From an uncultured bacterium (GTDB lineage: Bacteria; Patescibacteriota; Minisyncoccia; Phycocordibacterales; GWA1-40-21), in the NCBI GenBank assembly GCA_903850545.1, contig CAINLW010000009.1, forward strand, positions 2,311-66,310: a DNA stretch of 64,000 nucleotides, written 5' to 3'. The notes beneath the pieces are model-generated. The model searched no databases, was not told the DNA's origin, and was given only the letters and a program-made list of their open reading frames with translations. Shown here in pieces: positions 1-46,157 of the stretch (position 1 is the first letter of the stretch; each line of letters starts with the position of its first letter). Position numbers and translations under genes: made by a program.

Positions 1-299
1 TTCGTTATTTTTGGGTTTATAAAAATAAGATCATTTGTTTCATTAATCTTTTTTGGCCATTCTGAATCTGTTGAAAAGACTTTTTTTGATATCATAAACA
101 ATCTTATGGGTTGTCCTATTTGAATAGCTGAAATAGCAGCGGCATCAATTTGACTGTGAAGAGCTTTTTTAAGCAAAGTAATGGTTTTTTTGATCTTTAC
201 TGTGCTAATTTCTGTAGCTGGAATAGCTGAAGAAATTTCTCTCAAAATAGGGTTGTCTACTTGTAGTATTTCGGTTTTACTAATTTTGGTTTTTAACAT
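1..299 (-). CDS. def: Peptide deformylase, N-terminal part only; the gene continues past the window start
   Basis: Reverse-strand translation from ATG(299) reads MLKTKISKTEILQVDNPILREISSAIPATEISTVKIKKTITLLKKALHSQIDAAAISAIQIGQPIRLFMISKKVFSTDSEWPKKINETNDLIFINPKIT. This matches the Def N-terminal architecture (DxRLR-like / GxGLAAxQxG-like / NP-E motif regions). The frame is open to position 1. Confidence 0.7.
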   Translation of the reverse strand, partial: MLKTKISKTEILQVDNPILREISSAIPATEISTVKIKKTITLLKKALHSQIDAAAISAIQIGQPIRLFMISKKVFSTDSEWPKKINETNDLIFINPKIT

Positions 300-363
300 A
301 ATCAATAGAATAACATTTTTCAATAAATTGGTCAAAATTTACAAATATGCTATTATCAAAAAC

Positions 364-1356
364 ATGAAATCAAATATTTGGAAAAAAATATATAAAAAAA
401 ATACTTTTTTCTGTCTTGCGCCAATGGCGGATGTTACAGATGTAGTTTTTAGGCAAATAATCACTAAATACAGCAAACACGGTAAAATTGGCGGTGGACC
501 AGATGTTTTTTTTACTGAATTTGTTTCTGCTGATGGGATTGCAAATGAAATAGGTAGAAAAAAGCTTTTGCCTATTTTAAAATTTTCAAAAAAAGAAAAG
601 CCGATCATTGCACAAATATTTGGATCAAAACCGGAAAATATTAAAAAAACTTGTCAGATTATTGCCAAACTTGGTTTTGATGGAATAGATATAAATATGG
701 GATGTCCAGACAGATCTGTAATAAAGCAGGGTGCTGGCTCAGCTTTGATAAGAACACCGAAGCTTGCTTGTGAAATAATACGTTCAGCAAAAGCTGGCGC
801 TCCCAAACTTCCAATTTCAATAAAGACGCGCATTGGTTTTAATGTCATTGAATACAAAAAATGGCTTCCAAAAATTCTGGCTGAAAATATTTCTGCACTT
901 ACGGTTCACTTAAGGACAAAGAAAGAGATGTCGAATGTTTCTGCACATTTTGAGCTTGCAAATGATATTGTAAAAGTTGTTCGAGGATGTGATAAAAATG
1001 TGGTTTTAATCGCTAATGGCGATATAGAAAGTTTAGAGCAGGGAAGAATACTAGCTAAAGATACTGGTTTTGATGGAATAATGATAGGAAGAGGGATTTT
1101 TGGTAATCCATGGCTTTTCGATTCAAAAAGAAAAAATCCACCTAGTACAAGCGAAAAACTTAAAGTTCTAATTGAGCACACAAAACTTTATGAAAAAATT
1201 TTGACTCATAGAAATTTTGCAAATATGAAAAAACACTTCAAGGCATATGTAAGTGGTTTTGATGGAGCAAAAGAATTAAGAATGGAACTTATGGAGACTA
1301 ATAATTCAAAAGAAGTTCAAGTTATTATTGAAAAATTTCTACAAAATATATATTAG
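364..1356 (+). CDS. dus: tRNA-dihydrouridine synthase (Dus family, TIM-barrel flavoenzyme)
   Basis: The listed ORF 181..1356 trimmed to ATG at 364 (MKSNIW...). The upstream part would overlap divergent def. CLAPMADVTDVVFR motif. Family length. Confidence 0.8.
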   Translation: MKSNIWKKIYKKNTFFCLAPMADVTDVVFRQIITKYSKHGKIGGGPDVFFTEFVSADGIANEIGRKKLLPILKFSKKEKPIIAQIFGSKPENIKKTCQIIAKLGFDGIDINMGCPDRSVIKQGAGSALIRTPKLACEIIRSAKAGAPKLPISIKTRIGFNVIEYKKWLPKILAENISALTVHLRTKKEMSNVSAHFELANDIVKVVRGCDKNVVLIANGDIESLEQGRILAKDTGFDGIMIGRGIFGNPWLFDSKRKNPPSTSEKLKVLIEHTKLYEKILTHRNFANMKKHFKAYVSGFDGAKELRMELMETNNSKEVQVIIEKFLQNIY

Positions 1357-1604
1357 TAGTTTTTAATTTATTATTTACAAACTGTAATAAGTGTAATAAG
1401 ATACAAATTAGATGTATAACGCGCACTGTGTAAGGGAGATATGGTGCGTGGTAGTATTCATCTCACTGTCCAAGATTGTTTGCCTCATAATAACCATACT
1501 CCTCATGGGTTTTGGGGACTCTTGAAAAAGGGTTAGGGGCAGTGAGATGTAAGATTTTTCCGAGGCCAATAGTGACCTCGGATTTTTATATTATTTTTGT
1601 GTAC

Positions 1605-1632
1605 TTGACAAGTAGCCTGAGTATGCTAAGAT
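1605..1632 (+). promoter_or_regulatory. Sigma70-like promoter (TTGACA, 16-nt spacer, TAAGAT) in front of a GC-rich structured region
   Basis: Perfect -35 hexamer TTGACA at 1605-1610. The -10-like TAAGAT at 1627-1632 follows a 16-nt spacer. Confidence 0.4.
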
Positions 1633-1639
1633 GTATTTC

Positions 1640-1959
1640 GGACTCGTGAGAATCCCCCTAAAGGACCACTCCGAGCAAAAGTGAGGAGTTTTATGAACAA
1701 AAACAACACTAAAGCACCCTTGATCGAGAGCTAAAATATCGGCGCCCCGGCCTGCAAAATTCACTAAAAGGAGAGGGAAATCCCTCTAAGGAGGAGTGCC
1801 TAACCGCACCCGATATGGAGCCAAACTAACGCCCGCCAAGGGTATTGTTTGGAAAAACCAGCGGACTAGAAGCAAAGATACGTAGCCGTGACGACAAAGT
1901 GTTTTGGGGTCTTGACCCCCGCCCCCAGGAACCTCGTGTTCCTGGGCGGCTTTTTTTTA
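1640..1959 (+). ncRNA. Unidentified structured RNA candidate, about 320 nt and GC-rich, lying between a promoter and an intrinsic terminator just upstream of dnaX
   Basis: GC content is clearly above the surroundings. No ORF of 60 aa or more. Many local helices, e.g. ccgagg..cctcgg at 1560-1581 and ggggtc..gacccc at about 1907-1920. Terminal hairpin gcccccaggaac/gttcctgggcggc followed by T9. Identity (SRP RNA, RNase P RNA, tmRNA or other) is unresolved. Confidence 0.35.
1921..1959 (+). terminator. Rho-independent terminator
   Basis: GC-rich 12-bp stem gcccccaggaac/gttcctgggcggc followed by a run of nine T. Confidence 0.7.
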
Positions 1960-2017
1960 TATTTATTCGCGAAAATTGATGAACTGAGTTATAATATTTG
2001 AGTAATAAATATCATAC

Positions 2018-3067
2018 ATGACAGAAACAGCTTTATATAGAAAATATCGTCCGCAAAAATTTAAAGAAATTTTGGGACAAGATCATATAGTAAAAGTACT
2101 AGAATCTTCTATTAAAAATGGAAATATTGCTCACGCATATATTTTTGCAGGTTCACGAGGAACTGGAAAGACCAGTATTGCTAGAATATTAGCAAAAGAA
2201 ATTGGCACAACAGTAAATGACATTTCCGAAATAGATGCAGCTTCTAACACCGGAGTTGATGATATCCGAGCTTTAAATGAATCTGTAAGCACTTTGCCTT
2301 TTGAATCTGTATATAAAGTTTATATTTTAGACGAGGCTCATATGCTTTCAAAATCTGCTTGGAATGCGCTTTTAAAAACAATTGAGGAACCTCCTAAACA
2401 TGTAATTTTTATTCTTGCTACTACTGAAGCAAACAAAATTCCTGAAACTATCATTTCAAGATGTCAGACTTTCTCATTTAGAAAACCAACTCAAAAAATG
2501 CTAAAAGATGTAGTTGTGGCTATTGCAAAAAAGGAAGGTTTTTCCTTGGAAGCCTCCTCAGCGGATCTTATCGCTTTGCTTGGAGATGGGTCTTTTCGTG
2601 ATGCGCAAAGTATTTTGCAAAAAGTAATGAGTGCTTCAAAAGACAAAAAAATTAGTCATGAAGAAGTAGAACTTGTTACTGGTGCACCAAAAACTGAGCT
2701 AGTAAATGATTTTATAAGAGCTATAGACGAAAACAATCTTGAAATAGGACTTGGAGCTATTTCAAAAGCCACCGAAGCAAATATTGATATGCTTTTATAT
2801 TTTAAACTCGTTCTTCATAAGATGCGTTCAATACTTTTGCTTCGAAATCTGAAAAGCTCAGAAGGGAAGTTACAAGATGAAATGACAGATACCGATTTTA
2901 AATTTCTAAAAGGTCTTGCCGATAAAAAACCATCAAACCCGCCTACAGGTCGGGCAGGAATTACTTCTGATACTTTACTTACACTTTTATCTTATTACGA
3001 TATGGTGGCAAAAGCGTATATTCCCGAGTTACCACTTGAGATCGCTCTTACAAAGCTCATAAAATAG
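2018..3067 (+). CDS. dnaX: DNA polymerase III gamma/tau subunit, short form
   Basis: N-terminal YRKYRPQKF..GQDH, Walker A GSRGTGKTS, DEAH-like ILDEAHML, sensor SRCQ. Confidence 0.85.
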   Translation: MTETALYRKYRPQKFKEILGQDHIVKVLESSIKNGNIAHAYIFAGSRGTGKTSIARILAKEIGTTVNDISEIDAASNTGVDDIRALNESVSTLPFESVYKVYILDEAHMLSKSAWNALLKTIEEPPKHVIFILATTEANKIPETIISRCQTFSFRKPTQKMLKDVVVAIAKKEGFSLEASSADLIALLGDGSFRDAQSILQKVMSASKDKKISHEEVELVTGAPKTELVNDFIRAIDENNLEIGLGAISKATEANIDMLLYFKLVLHKMRSILLLRNLKSSEGKLQDEMTDTDFKFLKGLADKKPSNPPTGRAGITSDTLLTLLSYYDMVAKAYIPELPLEIALTKLIK

Positions 3068-3113
3068 TGTAGAAGATCGACAATTTTTATTAATTTATAA
3101 TTAAAATATAATT

Positions 3114-4874
3114 ATGACCAGTCTAGAAAATAATAAATTTGAAAAAGTGTCTTTAAATGACAAGATGGAAGAATCCCCACTGTTTTCAAAAAGATTTTAT
3201 GAAAAAATGCGTTTATTTGCATTAGCTGGTTTATTGCTTATGCCCGGTTATGGAATTGCATCAAAAAACAAAAACGAATCTACTGAAACATCTACTTCAC
3301 AACTGGAAAATAATCCAAACTATAACGATAGTTTAATAGAGCAATTTAATAAAATTAAACTTGAATCTCCACATATACACAATACATTTTTTATAAAAAA
3401 TGAAAAAACTGGTGTAATTGAAACAAACTGGTGGGCATTACTCGCACCATTTCAAGTAGAATTACCTTGGACAAAAGATGGAGTTAAAGATAGTTATAAC
3501 GTATTACATGATTATGCTCGTCTTTTCATATCCGCAGGAGCACTTAACAATAAAGAATATTCAAAAATTTCAGAATTAATGGAGCAAGAAATAAAACAAC
3601 AGTTGGTAGAAGTTTTATACGGTTTAGACATAAGCAAAAAAGCTCATGAAGCCAATGAAGCGCCAAATTTTGATCAATTAAAAATTGAGAGTATCAATAT
3701 AACCGGAACGGCTTCTCCAGAGGGTCCAGCTTATAAAGGACCAGAAACAATTGAAAGTGTAGATCCAGAAAATCTCAAATTGGCACATTCAAGAGGAGTA
3801 AGTGGTTTTGATGAAATAATTAAGTCACTTAAAAAATTAGGAATAAATCCTGATGAAAAGATATTGCAAAAAGCTCTTTATGGTATTAACTTTGAGGAAG
3901 TGCAATTTTCACCAGATGAAATGAATAGAATGGCAGAATTATCCCGTGACTATTTTGGGTCAGATTCTTTGGAAAAGATCTTTAATATGATTGTTGATTA
4001 TAATGATAAAAAAATCTCAGATCCAAATTTAGTTTTGGAACTTGATTCGAGGGTTGCTTCAAAAAGATCTGTAGAAATTGAAATCGAATATTCTGGCAAA
4101 TTGCATCGAAGCTTCTTAGTACCAATACCACTTTTGCTTTTTATATTACCTTTTATATTTGGAGATGGTCGCAAAAAATATATAAGTAAGATTTCAAAAA
4201 ATGGATCATTTTTTAATGAAAATTATGATACTTTGATTAAATCGGGAAGTGGCGCATATGGTGATAGTGAAAGTGCTGGAATAAGTAACATTGGTAAAAT
4301 TGGTGGTCCAGATAAAGTCAGTGAAGTTTCTATTACAAGTAGCGGAAATGTTGAAAAAATAAGTGAAGCAGAAAAAATTGGTTCTGCAAACGCAATAACA
4401 GAAACTGAAAAAATATCTGAAAATTTTCTTAAATATTATTATTCATCCACTATACCTGAAGGAAAAGATAGTGAGCAAATGGAGGAGGCAACATGGATTG
4501 ATGATCTCTATAATTACTTCGACAGCGAGATTGCGATTAAGAGGGGTTTGAGTTATCGAGCTATTACTGATTCTATTTTATATGATAGTAAAATCTTTAA
4601 AAATAGTGATGAGATAGAATTAAAACTTACATTTCTTATTTTAAATAAATGGACCGAGCATGATTTGGCGGCTCGTCGTGAAGCCGGAGTAGATGAAAAT
4701 GTAATAAATGACGGTTTGAATTACACTGAAAATAATGAGCAAATAAAATGGGCTCGCATGCACGCAAAAGCCATTATTGAGATTGTTAAAATGAAAAAAG
4801 AAAATCCAAACAAGGATTATGAGGAATTGCTTGCAATAAAAGTTCAACAACTTCAAAAAAGAAGAACTTTTTAA
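3114..4874 (+). CDS. Hypothetical membrane-anchored protein (N-terminal transmembrane segment, internal hydrophobic segment)
   Basis: 586-aa ORF. Hydrophobic stretch LFALAGLLLMPGYGIA near the N-terminus and LVPIPLLLFILPFIFG internally. No recognisable catalytic motif. Confidence 0.45.
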   Translation: MTSLENNKFEKVSLNDKMEESPLFSKRFYEKMRLFALAGLLLMPGYGIASKNKNESTETSTSQLENNPNYNDSLIEQFNKIKLESPHIHNTFFIKNEKTGVIETNWWALLAPFQVELPWTKDGVKDSYNVLHDYARLFISAGALNNKEYSKISELMEQEIKQQLVEVLYGLDISKKAHEANEAPNFDQLKIESINITGTASPEGPAYKGPETIESVDPENLKLAHSRGVSGFDEIIKSLKKLGINPDEKILQKALYGINFEEVQFSPDEMNRMAELSRDYFGSDSLEKIFNMIVDYNDKKISDPNLVLELDSRVASKRSVEIEIEYSGKLHRSFLVPIPLLLFILPFIFGDGRKKYISKISKNGSFFNENYDTLIKSGSGAYGDSESAGISNIGKIGGPDKVSEVSITSSGNVEKISEAEKIGSANAITETEKISENFLKYYYSSTIPEGKDSEQMEEATWIDDLYNYFDSEIAIKRGLSYRAITDSILYDSKIFKNSDEIELKLTFLILNKWTEHDLAARREAGVDENVINDGLNYTENNEQIKWARMHAKAIIEIVKMKKENPNKDYEELLAIKVQQLQKRRTF

Positions 4875-4984
4875 AAAATAGTGATAAATATTTGCTTGTT
4901 AACTAATAATAATAAGTATTACTGAGGGATTAAAAGTTATCCACAGTATTAATTGTTGACTATAATTAATATTTGAGTATAATT

Positions 4985-5430
4985 TGCGACAGGAAAAAAT
5001 ATTGATCTTTCTGCGCATAGAAAAACGACCCTTTCGGTCAAGGAAATAGCTATGCGCATAATCCGTATCTTGCGGACAGGGCAAGATAGGGTGCTCTTCA
5101 GAAGAACACCGCTACAAAGTGGGCGACTCTTTAAATAGTTGCCACGGATAAACAAAGTGCAGTAGTGCAAAACAAATCAAGCGCCACCCAAAAAGCGAAA
5201 ACTTGCGGGCCAAAGCGTCAGTTTATGCACTCCAGCCTGTTACTTAAAATTGCGACCAATCACCCTGAGAGGACGCAATTTGTGGCACAAAAGAGTGGTC
5301 ACGCCATTCTTTAGTTAGGGGTCCTGATGGTACTCAGCGAGACCTAAAGCTCGCGTCATCTAGCTTGCTCAGGCATGCAAAAAAGGACCCCGCGATTTCG
5401 CGGTCGAGTGGGGTTGGACTAGTAAAGTTC
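4985..5430. other. GC-rich, highly self-complementary intergenic island between convergent genes; candidate structured RNA or foreign remnant
   Basis: Nested helices: ctgcgcatag..ctatgcgca enclosing gacc-ctttc-ggtc; aaattgcg..cgcaattt; gcgag-acctaaag-ctcgc; ggggttgaac..gttcaacccc at 5410-5440. Only short spurious ORFs. Confidence 0.3.
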
Positions 5431-5530
5431 AACCCCCTCTTTAATTTATAAATTATATTTAATCTACACAATAACCACATTAAAGTGGTTTTTTAATTTT
5501 GTATTTAGAATACAATAGACGTCTTAAATA

Positions 5531-20365: not shown

Positions 20366-21181
20366 TTATTTTTCCTCCTTATTATTAATTATTTGGGCCA
20401 TCCTCCTAATGGCATCGCAAGACTCTTGAGAATGATGTTCTGTTTTCTTGAAAACAAATAAACAATCTTTGACGTTTTCAGTAGTGATCAAAGCCTTTTT
20501 AATAGCACTGGACTTAACGATACTTTCATCCGGAGAATCTTTCCACACTTTCATGCATTCCTTGAATGTCGTGGCGACTTCAAGTCTAGACTCGAGTATT
20601 TCGTTTATTTTATGAAGGGCTTTCGCTTGAACAGCGTCACTATATGAATCCCGTAGAACTTCCATGTAATCCCCAAATGTTAAAGCAGTTTCTAGCTTTA
20701 CCTCAAGAAGTTTTTCAATTTTCTCTGACACTTTTAGTTCAATGCAGTTACATATTTGCCGATCATCATCACGATCAATAATCTTTTCACATTCTTTAAT
20801 GGTCGTTGCAAATGTTACAGCTTTTTCCAACAACGCTTTCTGGAAAATACTAACATCACAATCATCAAAGTCCGTGTCGCCATCATCATCACAAAAAATT
20901 AACATATCATAAATCTTCATACACCCCCTGAATGTCGTGGCGTCTTCAACCTCCTTTTTAATAAGCTCCTCAATCTTTTCCTGCGCTTTTTCATAGATAT
21001 TCCTATCAGCAATATCACAATACTTAATTTCCCGACATTCGTTAAGTGTCTTGGCATTTTCGAGTCTCAAGTAAAGATCTGCATGTTTTTTTTCAATGTT
21101 TCCCAATGCCGACTCCGCAAAATATGTTCCGCCGAGGCCTAGAATACTCGCGATTTTTTCCACCAATATTTTTCTGTCCAT
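20366..21181 (-). CDS. Repeat protein, paralog A (~45-aa alpha-helical repeats with A-T-T-F-x-E/G-C-x-K-[IV]-[WY] cores)
   Basis: Internal repeats DATTFRGCMKIYD / ALTFGDYMEVLRDSYSD / VATTFKECMKVWKDSPDE. AAGGAG Shine-Dalgarno 8 nt before ATG(21181). C-terminal CDAIRRMAQIINNKEEK parallels the paralog. Confidence 0.55.
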   Translation of the reverse strand: MDRKILVEKIASILGLGGTYFAESALGNIEKKHADLYLRLENAKTLNECREIKYCDIADRNIYEKAQEKIEELIKKEVEDATTFRGCMKIYDMLIFCDDDGDTDFDDCDVSIFQKALLEKAVTFATTIKECEKIIDRDDDRQICNCIELKVSEKIEKLLEVKLETALTFGDYMEVLRDSYSDAVQAKALHKINEILESRLEVATTFKECMKVWKDSPDESIVKSSAIKKALITTENVKDCLFVFKKTEHHSQESCDAIRRMAQIINNKEEK

Positions 21182-25238: not shown

Positions 25239-25424
25239 GTATTAATGGTGTCAGAGATAGTGTCTTTTGCTAAGCGATAGCTTGTTGGCAACTTTTCTTA
25301 GCAGAATAACTAATTAGCGATATGATCAAGGTAGATTAATAATTTAAAAAGAGTTATTATGTGTAGGACAACTAAATAAGAAGTAGCCTAAACCAGTAGT
25401 AATACTGGCATGGTGAAAGTAAGT

Positions 25425-25510
25425 CCGTTGAAGATAAAAAACCCATCATGTGGGATTTGTCTTCAACGGCCGTATCTGGAAACAGGTATGGAGGGTTCAA
25501 ACCCTCACTC
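25425..25510 (+). other. Structured region upstream of the recombinase: a 10-bp perfect inverted repeat plus a tRNA T-arm-like hairpin; candidate attachment site
   Basis: ccgttgaaga..tcttcaacgg (25425-25469). gaggg-TTCAAAC-ccctc (25491-25506) fits the TPsiC arm consensus, but no complete tRNA could be folded. Confidence 0.3.
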
Positions 25511-25570: not shown

Positions 25571-26206
25571 ATGAAAATTCTCAGAAATATTTTGGGTATA
25601 GGTATCGGTCTTGTTTCTATTGGTTTGTTATTTAGTAAACCAATTTCAGGTATCGTAGGTCTTATTTTTGCAATAAGCTTTTTACCAAAAACGTGGTCTT
25701 ATCTTTCTAAGAAATATAATTTAAATATTCCTAAGCTCTATAAAATATTAATCGTTGTTGTATTACTTTTTGTTTTCTTTAGTCTTTTACCTCAATCAGC
25801 ACCTCAAGTCCAAAATGTTATTAACAATGAAGCTAGTTCAACTACAAATATAATTGATAAAGAAAAAACACAAAGTCTAAATGGTGGTATTAAGTTTAGT
25901 CTTGATAAGGATTACGGATTCGGTGTCATCACTGTTACAAACAAAGATAGCTTTGATTGGAAAGATTGTGTCTTTTCAGTTCCTCTTGCAAAAACTAATC
26001 CTCTTACAATATTAAAAGGAGATTATATGCCTATAACAGCATCTGATTTCTTTAATGATCCTGAGTTTAATAATGGTGGAAAACAAATGACTATGGATGA
26101 TGGCACTTTCAGAAATATAGGAGGTGCTATTAATGTCCAGTGCAGTAATGGTCAAAGCTCAATTGATAATGTTGCTAAAAATTTTAGTAATATAACTGTA
26201 AAATAA
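25571..26206 (+). CDS. Secreted/membrane-anchored hypothetical protein
   Basis: N-terminal hydrophobic segments. Thr/Asn-rich. Confidence 0.4.
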   Translation: MKILRNILGIGIGLVSIGLLFSKPISGIVGLIFAISFLPKTWSYLSKKYNLNIPKLYKILIVVVLLFVFFSLLPQSAPQVQNVINNEASSTTNIIDKEKTQSLNGGIKFSLDKDYGFGVITVTNKDSFDWKDCVFSVPLAKTNPLTILKGDYMPITASDFFNDPEFNNGGKQMTMDDGTFRNIGGAINVQCSNGQSSIDNVAKNFSNITVK

Positions 26207-35338: not shown

Positions 35339-36313
35339 ATGAACGATAATAAGATACACTTCAGTAACGTGCCGTTTATGGCATATGTCGAGAGCATGGG
35401 AGACGAATTGATAGAATGTACTCCAGTGGTATACGGCGATGGACTCAACTATGGCATCAGTGTGTTATTTCCCAACATGGAAAGTATCACATGGGGTCTG
35501 GTGACACCCAGAAACCTCATCACTGCATGGCGTGGGACAGAAATACTGCGTCATATCCACACCATCGAGAACGGAACACTCTGCGCAGCCTACTACACGG
35601 GTATACGCAGTCCTCACGAGAGTGATATGAAGTCGTACGTGGAACCGATCATCAAAAAAATTGGTCGGGATGTGTACGACACAATCATGTCAATGACCGT
35701 ACCCGAACAAATAATAAGGGCAATACTCGACAATCAGAATGGTGATTCCAAACCTGATCTTTACCCGATAACTGACGAAGTACGGGCGGGAACCATCGAG
35801 TGGCGACAAGAGTTCGTCGAATTCGGGATCAAGCACCCTGATGATGTCGATAACGAAGAGAGGTTGCAGAAAGAGACAATCGCTAAATTCGAACGCCTAC
35901 TGGCTTCCTATGCAAGATCGAGAAGTATACCGAGAAACTGTATGGGTATGAATTACGTCGAGAGTGCTCTATTGACTCTCGTCGACAAGAAAGCCAACGA
36001 GGAACATTCGGATAACGTACTTATCGCTCTCTCAGGTGTCGTCGGCGAACTAAGTATAACGAACTTCGCAGCATTTATATTACCGTTTGGCATTAGTAAT
36101 CAGGCGGAATATGATGCACGAATTAACAAAACCAAGGAGGAAGCACTTGAGTATTCGGCGTCGTGGCTGGCTTCAATTTCTAAACCACCGTGGTTTAGTT
36201 TTCTTAGAAAGAAAGAGACTGTCTCATTCACCTCAGAAAATGCAACGAAGTTGCTCAGAGAATTACTTGAAAAGTATTTTCCCAGAAGGAAAAAGTTAGT
36301 TACTTTTGTGTAG
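35339..36313 (+). CDS. Hypothetical protein encoded by a compositionally atypical (higher-GC) gene
   Basis: 324 aa. Strong Shine-Dalgarno sequence. Codon usage is visibly richer in G/C-ending codons than neighbouring genes. Confidence 0.5.
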   Translation: MNDNKIHFSNVPFMAYVESMGDELIECTPVVYGDGLNYGISVLFPNMESITWGLVTPRNLITAWRGTEILRHIHTIENGTLCAAYYTGIRSPHESDMKSYVEPIIKKIGRDVYDTIMSMTVPEQIIRAILDNQNGDSKPDLYPITDEVRAGTIEWRQEFVEFGIKHPDDVDNEERLQKETIAKFERLLASYARSRSIPRNCMGMNYVESALLTLVDKKANEEHSDNVLIALSGVVGELSITNFAAFILPFGISNQAEYDARINKTKEEALEYSASWLASISKPPWFSFLRKKETVSFTSENATKLLRELLEKYFPRRKKLVTFV

Positions 36314-40108: not shown

Positions 40109-40382
40109 AATGAATATAATAGTTAAAGCGGTAACAAATGTCGGTATGAAAGTCACAGGAAAAAGGACTAACAAGCTACCGAAGATTCCGCAAGGGTGCG
40201 GGTTGGTTGCTGTAATACACAAAGGGTCCGAAGATGTGTTAGAAGACGTGACATATTTAGCAAAATATATGGGTTGTCACATAAAGGACTGCTGCGGAAC
40301 ACACAGGATGGACCTATACATTCTGTCACATTATCAGATGCGGTTGTGTGGTATAGGGCCATGCCAACACAGCAAGAGGTAG
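40109..40382 (+). CDS. Cysteine-rich 91-aa ORF in a GC-rich segment
   Basis: GGGAGG 6 nt before ATG. 8 Cys including CCGTH and CGIGPC. The terminator-like hairpin cgcgcc..ggcgcg lies 34-66 nt downstream. Confidence 0.3.
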
Positions 40383-40459
40383 TTGAGTCACCTAGAAGTA
40401 CTCGTGATCGTCGCGCCTGTATTTTAAGGCGCGGCGATTATTTTTTTATATTTTCTGAT

Positions 40460-44901: not shown

Positions 44902-45384
44902 ATGAAAAATAAAAGTACCGCGATTAACGTTGATGATATAGATGTTAAAATTCTGCTGGCAGTTTTTGAGCGCGAGTGCATTCTTAACAGATTGCCGCTC
45001 CGTTTACCAGCAAATATTCCCGCCGAAGAAAAAACTTCTTTCTTCAAGCGGTTGCGGACAGAGCAGGATATCTTTTTACGTGATTTTTATAATAAACACA
45101 TCAGTGACAAAAAAGAATCGCCTGACAAAAAGCTGGAGGCTTACGTTATCGGCAAAAAAATTAAGGGGTCGAAAACAGGAAAGAACGAATGGACTCCTGC
45201 AAGCATTGACGCCCTCGCAAGAAAGAAGGGAAAGCTTCCCAAAGGATCAACCGATGGTATGACCAAGGCCGAGCTGAAGGAGTTCAAAAAGCTTCGGTGG
45301 AATTATAAATACGGAAAACGCCCCGTTACAAAAAAAGGAAAAGGGCGCGGTCAGTCCTCAGGGGCTGAATTGGAGGGCGATTGA
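44902..45384 (+). CDS. Hypothetical basic protein encoded by a higher-GC gene
   Basis: GAAGGAGGAG Shine-Dalgarno sequence. Lys/Gly-rich C-terminal tail. Confidence 0.45.
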   Translation: MKNKSTAINVDDIDVKILLAVFERECILNRLPLRLPANIPAEEKTSFFKRLRTEQDIFLRDFYNKHISDKKESPDKKLEAYVIGKKIKGSKTGKNEWTPASIDALARKKGKLPKGSTDGMTKAELKEFKKLRWNYKYGKRPVTKKGKGRGQSSGAELEGD

Positions 45385-45657: not shown

Positions 45658-45695
45658 ACGACCGAGCTCCCCTGGGAGCTCGGTCGTATTTTTGT
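45658..45695. terminator. Bidirectional terminator (perfect 14-bp stem) between convergent genes
   Basis: acgaccgagctccc-ct-gggagctcggtcgt. T-run downstream on the plus strand and A-rich upstream. Confidence 0.6.
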
Positions 45696-45704
45696 GCTGA
45701 GAGT

Positions 45705-46157
45705 TCAGCGCGGAATCGACACTACTGTGATACCAGCAAAAGTATATTTCTTCGGCATCACTACAATTTTCCATCCTTCGCGAAGGCCGATGCCGCCACC
45801 ATGTGAGAACTTGACTTTGTTTTCTGGTGATAAGGTTGCTTCAACATCGGCCCAGAAAAGGTCGTCGACGGCATTAGCGAAGTCACATTCGACCATCGTT
45901 CGTCCCAAATTTTGGCACTTGGGACAGGTGAGCGAGTCGCCTGTGGTCGAGCAGTCAACCATCTCGTTGTGTTCACCAGCCATCTTGTTGTACGAGTCTA
46001 TGGTGTTGTTTTTGAAGGCGTAGAACTTTTGAAGTTCAATGTCGGTTATCTGTCCTACTATCACCTCATTCGACCCCACCTTATCATTCGGACCTTTGAT
46101 ATCCTCAGGTTTTATAGCCGAAATTCCGTCACATAACCGCCTCAGTATCTTTGTCAT
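45705..46157 (-). CDS. Hypothetical protein with a CxxC motif, encoded by a higher-GC gene
   Basis: AAGGAGAG Shine-Dalgarno sequence 5 nt before ATG(46157). CPKC. Confidence 0.45.
   Translation of the reverse strand: MTKILRRLCDGISAIKPEDIKGPNDKVGSNEVIVGQITDIELQKFYAFKNNTIDSYNKMAGEHNEMVDCSTTGDSLTCPKCQNLGRTMVECDFANAVDDLFWADVEATLSPENKVKFSHGGGIGLREGWKIVVMPKKYTFAGITVVSIPR

Follow-up and report, generated by a model that had tools for sequence, protein, structure and literature searches.

What is encoded in the GC-rich segment that lies directly upstream of dnaX in an uncultured bacterium of the Patescibacteria? In Bacillus and other Firmicutes this position is occupied by the signal recognition particle (SRP) RNA gene (scr or ffs). 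An earlier note on a 64,000-nucleotide stretch of contig CAINLW010000009.1 (hereafter the window), in which the gene neighbours are fmt, def, dus and dnaX, singled out a promoter-to-terminator segment at 1560–1959 as either a divergent housekeeping RNA or a novel structured RNA. Our best explanation, which may well be right but which we hold tentatively, is that nucleotides ~1639–1959, referred to here as RNA B, form a lineage-specific and separately transcribed gene for a regulatory or dual-function small RNA, located in a variable spacer.

The boundaries of the unit are given by the following features, all read from the window sequence.

1605–1632, + strand: sigma-70-type promoter, with −35 TTGACA at 1605–1610, a 16-nt spacer and extended −10 TGcTAAGAT at 1624–1632
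1639–1959, + strand: the whole unit, RNA B, ~320 nt, 50.6% GC, consisting of G+C-rich hairpins joined by A-rich linkers
1921–1958, + strand: intrinsic terminator, with stem GCCCCCAGGAAC / GUUCCUGGGCGGC (1921–1932/1938–1950), loop CUCGU and U8 at 1951–1958

The GC content of 1640–1959 (50.6%, against 32.9% for the whole window) is matched by only 2 of 6368 sliding 320-nt windows, namely 1640–1959 itself and 45661–45981, in agreement with the GC richness noted earlier. The near-consensus promoter TTGACA-16-TAAGAT reported in the earlier note was recovered in our promoter scan, with 10 of 12 consensus matches (TAAGAT at 1627–1632) and an additional TG at 1624–1625, and transcription would be expected to start near 1639–1640. 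Comparison with related loci, designated by L-numbers and taken from metagenome-assembled genomes (MAGs) of Paceibacterota (Patescibacteria, or candidate phyla radiation, CPR), shows that a CTTGACA-N17-TGnTAnnnT box heads the equivalent units in L085, L086, L087, L171, L173, L174, L006, L090, L092, and L097, and that the equivalent units all end with a G+C-rich hairpin and a T-run. The strong GC-rich terminator hairpin described at 1921–1959 is present both in the terminator scan, with a core of 9 pairs, 6 of them G-C, at 1924–1946, and in the folds, but the run that follows it has eight Ts rather than nine. The start at 1560 needs correction, as 1560–1597 ends a separate upstream unit (~1408–1598). 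The statement that the segment lacks an open reading frame (ORF) holds for ORFs of at least 60 aa on the + strand, of which there are none, but overlooked a 13-codon ORF at 1693–1734 led by a Shine-Dalgarno (SD) sequence. No genes are called in the Dus–dnaX gap on four public contigs with identical DNA. RNA B is placed on the + strand because of the orientation of its promoter and terminator and because of the G-U pairs in its conserved helices, those in P0 and P1 being consistent with the sense strand. To judge from the sequence, it has the features generic to a small-RNA gene: its own promoter, an intrinsic terminator, and no long ORF.

The sole block that RNA B shares with its relatives by alignment is window 1786–1873 (~85 nt), which consists, in order, of AAGGAG(G), a P0 helix of ACU/AGU type, a bulge, a P1 helix of the form CCCNNN/NNNGGG, an internal loop (in the family, AAGA facing AAAC), a variable P2, and a GGGCUAG tail. 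AAGGAG is present in 10/10 aligned members. The corresponding features of the window copy are as follows.

1787–1796, + strand: orphan SD-like tract UAAGGAGGAG, complementary over 8 nt to the canonical 16S 3′ tail, with no usable start codon after it
1800–1869, + strand: predicted stem-loop domain P0–P1–P2, from an alignment of 10 members and a covariance model
1800–1802 with 1867–1869, + strand: P0, CUA with UAG, from the alignment
1810–1812 with 1862–1864, and 1816–1818 with 1858–1860, + strand: P1, CCG with CGG and UGG with CCA, from the alignment
Internal loop, + strand: AG on one side and AAAAA opposite, from the alignment
1821–1826 with 1847–1852, + strand: P2, CCAAAC with GUUUGG, with inner GCCC at 1831–1834 paired with GGGU at 1840–1843
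3′ tail of the domain, + strand: ACUAG, from the alignment

P1 occurs in several versions that differ in sequence but keep their pairing: CCCGAAA/UUUCGGG, CCCGAGA/UCUCGGG, CCCAAG/CUUGGG, CCCUAA/UUGGGG, and GCCAAAU/AUUGGC. In the 10-sequence alignment, 84.9% of the paired cells are complementary vs. 74.1% in shuffles, both sides have changed in 5 of 10 pairs, and the covariation score is 0.271 vs. 0.101, with none of 500 shuffles attaining the observed score. When the partners are slid against each other, pairing falls to 13–51%, and folding of single sequences recovers P1 and P2 in 8/10 members. The search for covariation among relatives that had been suggested for this segment is thus positive as regards P1, and the domain with its covarying P1 has no match among Rfam families. 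Conserved secondary structure with compensatory changes is indicated for the 1800–1869 domain alone. Of the novel structured RNA originally proposed, then, the ~85-nt domain stands; the term “structured non-coding RNA” fits only part of RNA B, since the rest is unconserved and carries a small SD-led ORF.

Comparison with known families was made with Rfam 15, by a scan of the window at gathering score and a scan of 1350–2050 on both strands at E ≤ 10 with permissive filters. At gathering score, LOOT RNA (25385–25506) and tRNA-Gln were the only matches in the whole window. The permissive scan, which covered the families that had been named as candidates, returned zero matches to SRP RNA (RF00169 / RF01854), RNase P RNA (RF00010 / RF00011), transfer-messenger RNA (tmRNA; RF00023 and permuted forms), or 6S RNA (RF00013). 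The weak matches that it did return (PyrG leader, NsiR1, and Thr leader) were rejected as terminator-driven noise; that to the PyrG leader, at 30 bits, falls short of its gathering score (65) and sits on the terminator of the upstream unit. ARAGORN found tRNA-Gln alone in the window and no tmRNA. No domain IV, P4, or tRNA-like motif was found in RNA B. The minimum free energy (MFE) fold of RNA B is multibranched, unlike the rod of 6S RNA, whose Rfam model may miss divergent members. Rfam searches of 17 relatives' loci returned tRNAs only, and a literature search found no published description of RNA B. RNA B is therefore a family new to Rfam, though of a familiar type, a lineage-restricted small RNA with a mini-ORF. 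Two likenesses within the domain were considered and dropped: a tmRNA-like “resume codon GCA”, for which the tRNA-like part is absent, and an 11-nt tetraloop-receptor resemblance (CCUAAC...UAUGG), which is confined to the window copy. LOOT RNA (RF03000), an Rfam motif from CPR and environmental sequences, is likewise a small structured RNA in the same genome, but cmscan of the RNA B region does not return it. The LOOT copy itself is full-length (85.6 bits, E = 9e-15) and lies upstream of an ORF at 25571–26206.

Relatives with 76–93% identical DnaX carry promoter-to-terminator units of the same architecture in the same Dus–dnaX spacer. The covariance model, R1, finds the domain in 11 species; a search of 579 kb of relatives' sequence returned spacer copies only, with seeds at 41–66 bits and the next best match, a degenerate copy in L169, at 22.6 bits. 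L173 is an independent new member (65 bits with R1), and degenerate versions can be seen by eye in L085 and L174. The domain is missing in L172 (92% DnaX identity), L007–L009, L092, L095, L097, and all more distant relatives, and the element is missing from relatives with DnaX ≤72% identical. The spacer itself varies as well. In many relatives at 48–56% DnaX identity a Dus-size ORF ends ≤~100 nt from dnaX (only L028 and L032 were read closely), in L010, L011, L014, and L016 (53–59%) the spacer is already ~1–1.3 kb long, and in the 72–93% clade it measures 0.3–3.5 kb and contains a single GC-rich promoter-to-terminator unit or several of them, in some cases along with protein genes. The number of units ranges from one to over five; protein genes are present in the spacers of L087 and L010–L016, and a 3.5-kb array in that of L006.

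Most of the RNA B sequence cannot be aligned even at 89–93% DnaX identity. Third-codon positions of dnaX are 42–63% identical to those of the window (52–63% for the closest relatives), and since synonymous sites are thus near saturation, unconstrained DNA would be expected to be unalignable; in agreement with this, when all fetched loci were searched by blastn (word size 7) with RNAs A, B, and C, the only matches were identical copies. One pair of relatives is close enough for a direct comparison of rates. Between L086 and L173 the whole 570-nt unit is 90.7% identical, vs. 80% at dnaX third positions, and compensatory changes are found in P2 and in the terminator. Because the unit is better conserved than dnaX third positions, the whole RNA is under purifying selection, at least in this pair.

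RNA B also differs from the native genes of its genome in carrying SD sequences. Among ORFs of at least 150 aa in the window, 43 of 49 have no SD within 25 nt (e.g., 2018, 3114, 5531c, and 38311), and many starts lie right after TATAAT-like boxes. The SD-led genes are mostly GC-rich, and most are without a Pfam match (35339–36313, ~40111–40383, 44902–45384, and 45705–46157 on the − strand). As native genes lack SDs, RNA B resembles these GC-rich, SD-bearing accessory genes. On the sense strand of the Dus–dnaX spacers, matches of at least 7 nt to TAAGGAGGTGATCC are nine-fold enriched (1.84 vs. 0.20 per kb) and reach 11–13 nt in L174, L089, L086, L173, and L092. Several of the long tracts have no usable start codon after them, and in L085 and L171 they are followed by start-stop ORFs (AUG UAA). 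Matches of 10–13 nt to the complement of the canonical 16S 3′ tail, TAAGGAGGTGATC, were located in L174 (2160), L089 (1639), L086 (3566), L173 (912), L092 (2168), and L085 (3563).

Upstream of the conserved domain lies the small ORF, and the remaining features of RNA B are listed with it.

1640–1655, + strand: predicted 5′ hairpin (MFE and centroid folds), followed by C-rich single-stranded UCCCCCU at 1653–1659
1668–1689, + strand: predicted pairing of ACUCC (1668–1672) with GGAGU (1685–1689) (MFE and centroid folds)
1693–1734, + strand: mini-ORF, AUG, 12 more codons and UAA (MNKNNTKAPLIES), 4 nt past the SD GAGGAG at 1683–1688
1741–1752, + strand: GGCGCC-CCGGCC motif, each hexamer of which occurs only twice in the 64 kb
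1772–1787, + strand: predicted hairpin AGAGGG-AAAU-CCCUCU, abutting the second SD-like tract (from the fold; also scanned as a − strand terminator-like site)
1906–1919, + strand: predicted hairpin GGGGU-CUUG-ACCCC

The pairing at 1668–1689, if formed, would mask the first SD. Past the UAA of the mini-ORF, the same frame reads NIGAPACKIH* and crosses the GGCGCC-CCGGCC motif; the equivalent units of L090 and L091 also contain this pair of hexamers, and those of L006, L007, and L097 have GGCGCC only. At the equivalent position the relatives have longer mini-ORFs (L091 MKTGPPTIRRKSVVTKAKTACIGA, L090 MTTAPPVL...IDGAIA, and L006 MTRAPPIY...), which contain Pro-Pro or Pro-x-Pro near the start (MTRAPP, MTTAPP, MKTGPP, MNTPP, MKQNPIPI), and many relatives' mini-ORFs end in Ile/Leu-x-Gly-Ala, encoded by the same GGCGCC. 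The mini-ORF of the window looks like a shortened copy of these. A pattern search for M-x(2-5)-P-x-P mini-ORFs proved too unspecific in GC-rich loci and was not used as a statistic.

These observations can be combined as follows. The Dus–dnaX spacer in one narrow lineage of Paceibacterota would be a variable islet that gathers GC-rich, SD-bearing accessory units. The 5′ half of RNA B would carry an SD hidden by pairing and an ORF of very few codons, a cut-down copy of a proline-motif mini-ORF that is apparently translated in relatives, and the core of the 3′ half would be the orphan AAGGAGG tract followed by the P0–P1–P2 stem-loop domain. The selected part would be the folded domain with its exposed purine tract, which would be non-coding and may act through RNA–RNA or RNA–protein contacts, possibly with the ribosome. 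An RNA of this kind would be comparable to dual-function small RNAs such as SgrS/SgrT, RNAIII/hld, and SR1/SR1P, short transcripts that have a promoter and terminator to themselves and bear both a small SD-led ORF and a structured part conserved in its own right. It differs from them in that its ORF has only 13 codons and is interrupted relative to relatives, and it has no sequence or structural homology to them. With CsrB/RsmZ it shares a strong promoter, a terminator, and GGA-containing purine tracts between hairpins and A-rich linkers, but the tracts of the RNA B family are extended SD sequences (up to AAGGAGGUGAUC in relatives) rather than ANGGA in hairpin loops. Each RNA has only 2–3 GGAG tracts, mostly between hairpins or masked, and we know of no CsrA gene in this lineage, although no search for CsrA was made.

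Several points weigh against the small-RNA explanation. Only about one quarter of the ~320 nt is kept, the remainder being unconserved. The covariation is based on 10–12 sequences, and its numbers tilt towards structure because the structure was derived from the same sequences. The window's own P1 is weaker than that of the family, with 3 of 7 columns mispaired, and its copy scores 48.5 bits with R1 (E = 2e-9), third-lowest of the ten seeds. The single-sequence fold only modestly beats shuffles (z = −2.5 on the + strand, with a nearly equal −2.3 for the antisense), so the structural case rests on the comparison with relatives, not on energy. Promoter-like sites as a class are not enriched in the region (31 vs. 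27.8 expected from shuffles), and the promoter call therefore rests on the occurrence of the same box in relatives. Even close relatives do not carry the family consistently: L172 lacks it, and the copies in L085 and L169 are degenerate. Finally, the mini-ORFs of relatives bear a coding signature, and the unit may be mainly a micro-protein mRNA.

That possibility, in which RNA B is a tiny mRNA or micro-protein cassette whose mini-ORFs are the product, with the stem-loop stabilizing the mRNA or controlling a second micro-ORF, is unlikely in our judgement but survives best among the alternatives. The mini-ORF of the window has a good SD, and the other GC-rich islands of the window are SD-led protein genes. 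Seven codons can be aligned between the mini-ORFs of L097 (MKQNPIPIIAGA) and L010 (MRKQHPIPIASG); they show four synonymous changes, with one in-frame indel in addition, a coding signature from which we conclude that mini-ORFs in the spacer are probably translated in some species. In the same sense, the second mini-ORF (MR..RKAR..) shows synonymous Arg codon changes between L097 and L007, GGC GCC encodes Gly-Ala in the same frame in L090, L091, L007, L092, and L097, and a 6-nt indel that preserves the frame separates the first mini-ORF of L086 from that of L173. In the window, however, an in-frame UAA cuts the mini-ORF to 13 codons, and a UGA cuts that of L006. The conserved domain was also considered as a coding region and rejected: it has no conserved start codon (the triplets at the expected start are UUG three times, UCG and UAA twice each, and CUG, UCA, GUA, CCG, and UAG once each), its common frame has an early stop in 6 of 11 members, and frames are not conserved but depend on how long P2 is, with positions far apart covarying, all of which marks the domain as non-coding. 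Coding constraint does not account for covariation across more than 40 nt. The 50-aa ORF of L173 was likewise dismissed as coding evidence, as L086 reads its middle part in a different frame.

An A-run right after SD-AUG, A9 in L086 (3566–3590) vs. A8 in L173 (912–935), gives a 5-codon vs. a 50-codon ORF; this may reflect nothing more than indel noise, or it may mark a site prone to slippage.

An improbable alternative is that RNA B is accessory or foreign DNA in decay: a cassette once acquired horizontally would have left this remnant, which keeps a promoter and a terminator but has no current function. The GC content and SD use of the unit, unlike those of native genes and like those of the window's islands without Pfam matches, would fit this origin, as would the highly variable spacer content among relatives, the in-frame stop in the mini-ORF, and the presence of the family in some close relatives but not in others. 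Against decay, the domain, promoter, and terminator are kept across species whose synonymous sites are near saturation, and between L086 and L173 the unit has changed less than synonymous sites have. A phage origin gains no support either: a search of phage DNA with the element found no similarity to phage records, and a pattern scan of viral contigs for the conserved domain gave 7 matches, about the chance level by a rough estimate, with model scores of ≤18 bits. As the best of these (L180, 18 bits), the one whose context was read, was rejected for lying inside a 529-aa ORF, no viral link is indicated for the domain. Three GC-rich ORFs without Pfam matches and a 586-aa ORF have no match in PHROGs, and the SD-led ORF at 20366–21181 has a single weak one (E = 0.003).

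More speculative, and in our view a long shot, is the idea that RNA B and its relatives are abundant decoy or sensor RNAs that engage ribosomes in a bacterium whose native mRNAs lack SDs. The combination of long orphan tracts (up to 13 nt), start-stop ORFs, Pro-Pro mini-ORFs, and a hairpin domain at the site of a start codon would suit RNAs that capture 30S or 70S ribosomes with a free anti-SD, thereby titrating or reporting a ribosome subpopulation.

It is very unlikely that RNA B regulates dnaX in cis, as a leader or attenuator in which read-through from the promoter at 1605 is set by translation of the proline-motif mini-ORF. The unit does lie directly upstream of dnaX on the same strand, and its order of mini-ORF, hairpins, and terminator is like that of leader-peptide attenuators. 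In relatives, however, the dnaX ATG lies 6–8 nt past a TGnTATAAT box of its own and has no SD, an arrangement that suggests a leaderless dnaX mRNA and would leave the internal AUG of a read-through RNA badly placed for initiation. The homologous unit of L006 lies 3 kb from dnaX with other terminated units between them, and the terminator of RNA B is strong, with no alternative antiterminator pairing found. The likeness extends to arrest peptides such as SecM and the RAPP-type ApdA/ApdP, in that the relatives' tiny ORFs have Pro-Pro or Pro-x-Pro near the start and are followed by hairpins and a terminator, but the mini-ORF of the window has a single Pro, and no regulated gene is apparent downstream, since dnaX has its own promoter in relatives.

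The highly divergent housekeeping RNA (SRP RNA, 6S RNA, RNase P RNA, or tmRNA) of the earlier note, which the position before dnaX, the GC richness, and the promoter and terminator might have suggested, can be put aside as hardly credible, given the failure of the Rfam, ARAGORN, and motif searches, the absence of the element at ≤72% DnaX identity and in some relatives at 92%, and a sequence that is unalignable at divergences where housekeeping RNAs are expected to remain alignable. Like the Firmicute scr/ffs gene, RNA B is a GC-rich RNA gene with a predicted transcript of its own, directly before dnaX and on the same strand; it differs in lacking helix 8 (domain IV) and an Rfam SRP match, in its narrow lineage, and in being mostly unconserved, and the resemblance is one of position only.

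Other candidate units lie nearby in the window and in the relatives. The unit immediately upstream of RNA B has the following features.

~1408–1598, + strand: RNA A, with promoter-like TTTACA-17-TAAGAT at 1374–1402 and a fold z of −4.4, the fold having the terminator hairpin at its 3′ end
1560–1597, + strand: terminator of RNA A, outside RNA B, hairpin CCGAGG-N10-CCTCGG and T-run

RNA A contains a predicted long-range helix (1470–1478 with 1541–1549) and a 31-aa ORF (1441–1536) abutting a AAGGGAGAU tract, and has no homologue in the relatives' loci by blastn. A second GC-rich (47%) unit at 4956–5450, with TTGACT-16-TATAAT at 4956–4983 and a terminator at 5410–5445, lies between the 586-aa ORF without a Pfam match and an M29 peptidase gene. 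It has no ORF of at least 90 aa and no Rfam match at E ≤ 5, and with a fold z of −6.9 over ~460 nt it looks like a stronger structured-RNA candidate than RNA B.

In L006 (Candidatus Paceibacterota MAG, JBAZYH010000003.1), the 3.5 kb before dnaX (100–3593) contain no sense ORF of at least 60 aa and at least five promoter/terminator mini-units, in a layout that resembles a cassette array. A hairpin repeat, made up of GTCGCG...GTCCATTGAARCGCGAC and then AAACTAATAGACAA, occurs six times at scattered places in this locus; the repeat was discarded as a general feature because it is absent from every other fetched locus. L006 also has a 107-nt tandem duplication with two mini-ORFs, MNTPPNYSLFS and MNGPPSYLF. 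L169 (3640–3735) and L170 (~3650–3745) each encode a compact RNA of ~95 nt with its own promoter, in which the outer stem GCUGGUUAUUUA/UAAAUAACUGGC is also the terminator and encloses an ACCCUA...UAGGGCUAA helix; between the two loci, a U-G pair of the outer stem is changed to C-G.

RNA B is real and well bounded, yet narrowly distributed and only partly conserved. CPR bacteria make up a large share of bacterial diversity, and to our knowledge almost none of their regulatory RNAs has been characterized. The analysis adds a defined small-RNA family with a promoter, a terminator, a ~85-nt covarying domain, and a working covariance model, and it settles that the gene before dnaX in this bacterium is not the SRP RNA gene. 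If the family is only a lineage-specific small RNA or a micro-ORF cassette, it would amount to ordinary genome annotation. The contrast between native genes without SDs and accessory units rich in them raises the wider question of how the ribosomes of such a bacterium would treat SD-bearing RNAs.

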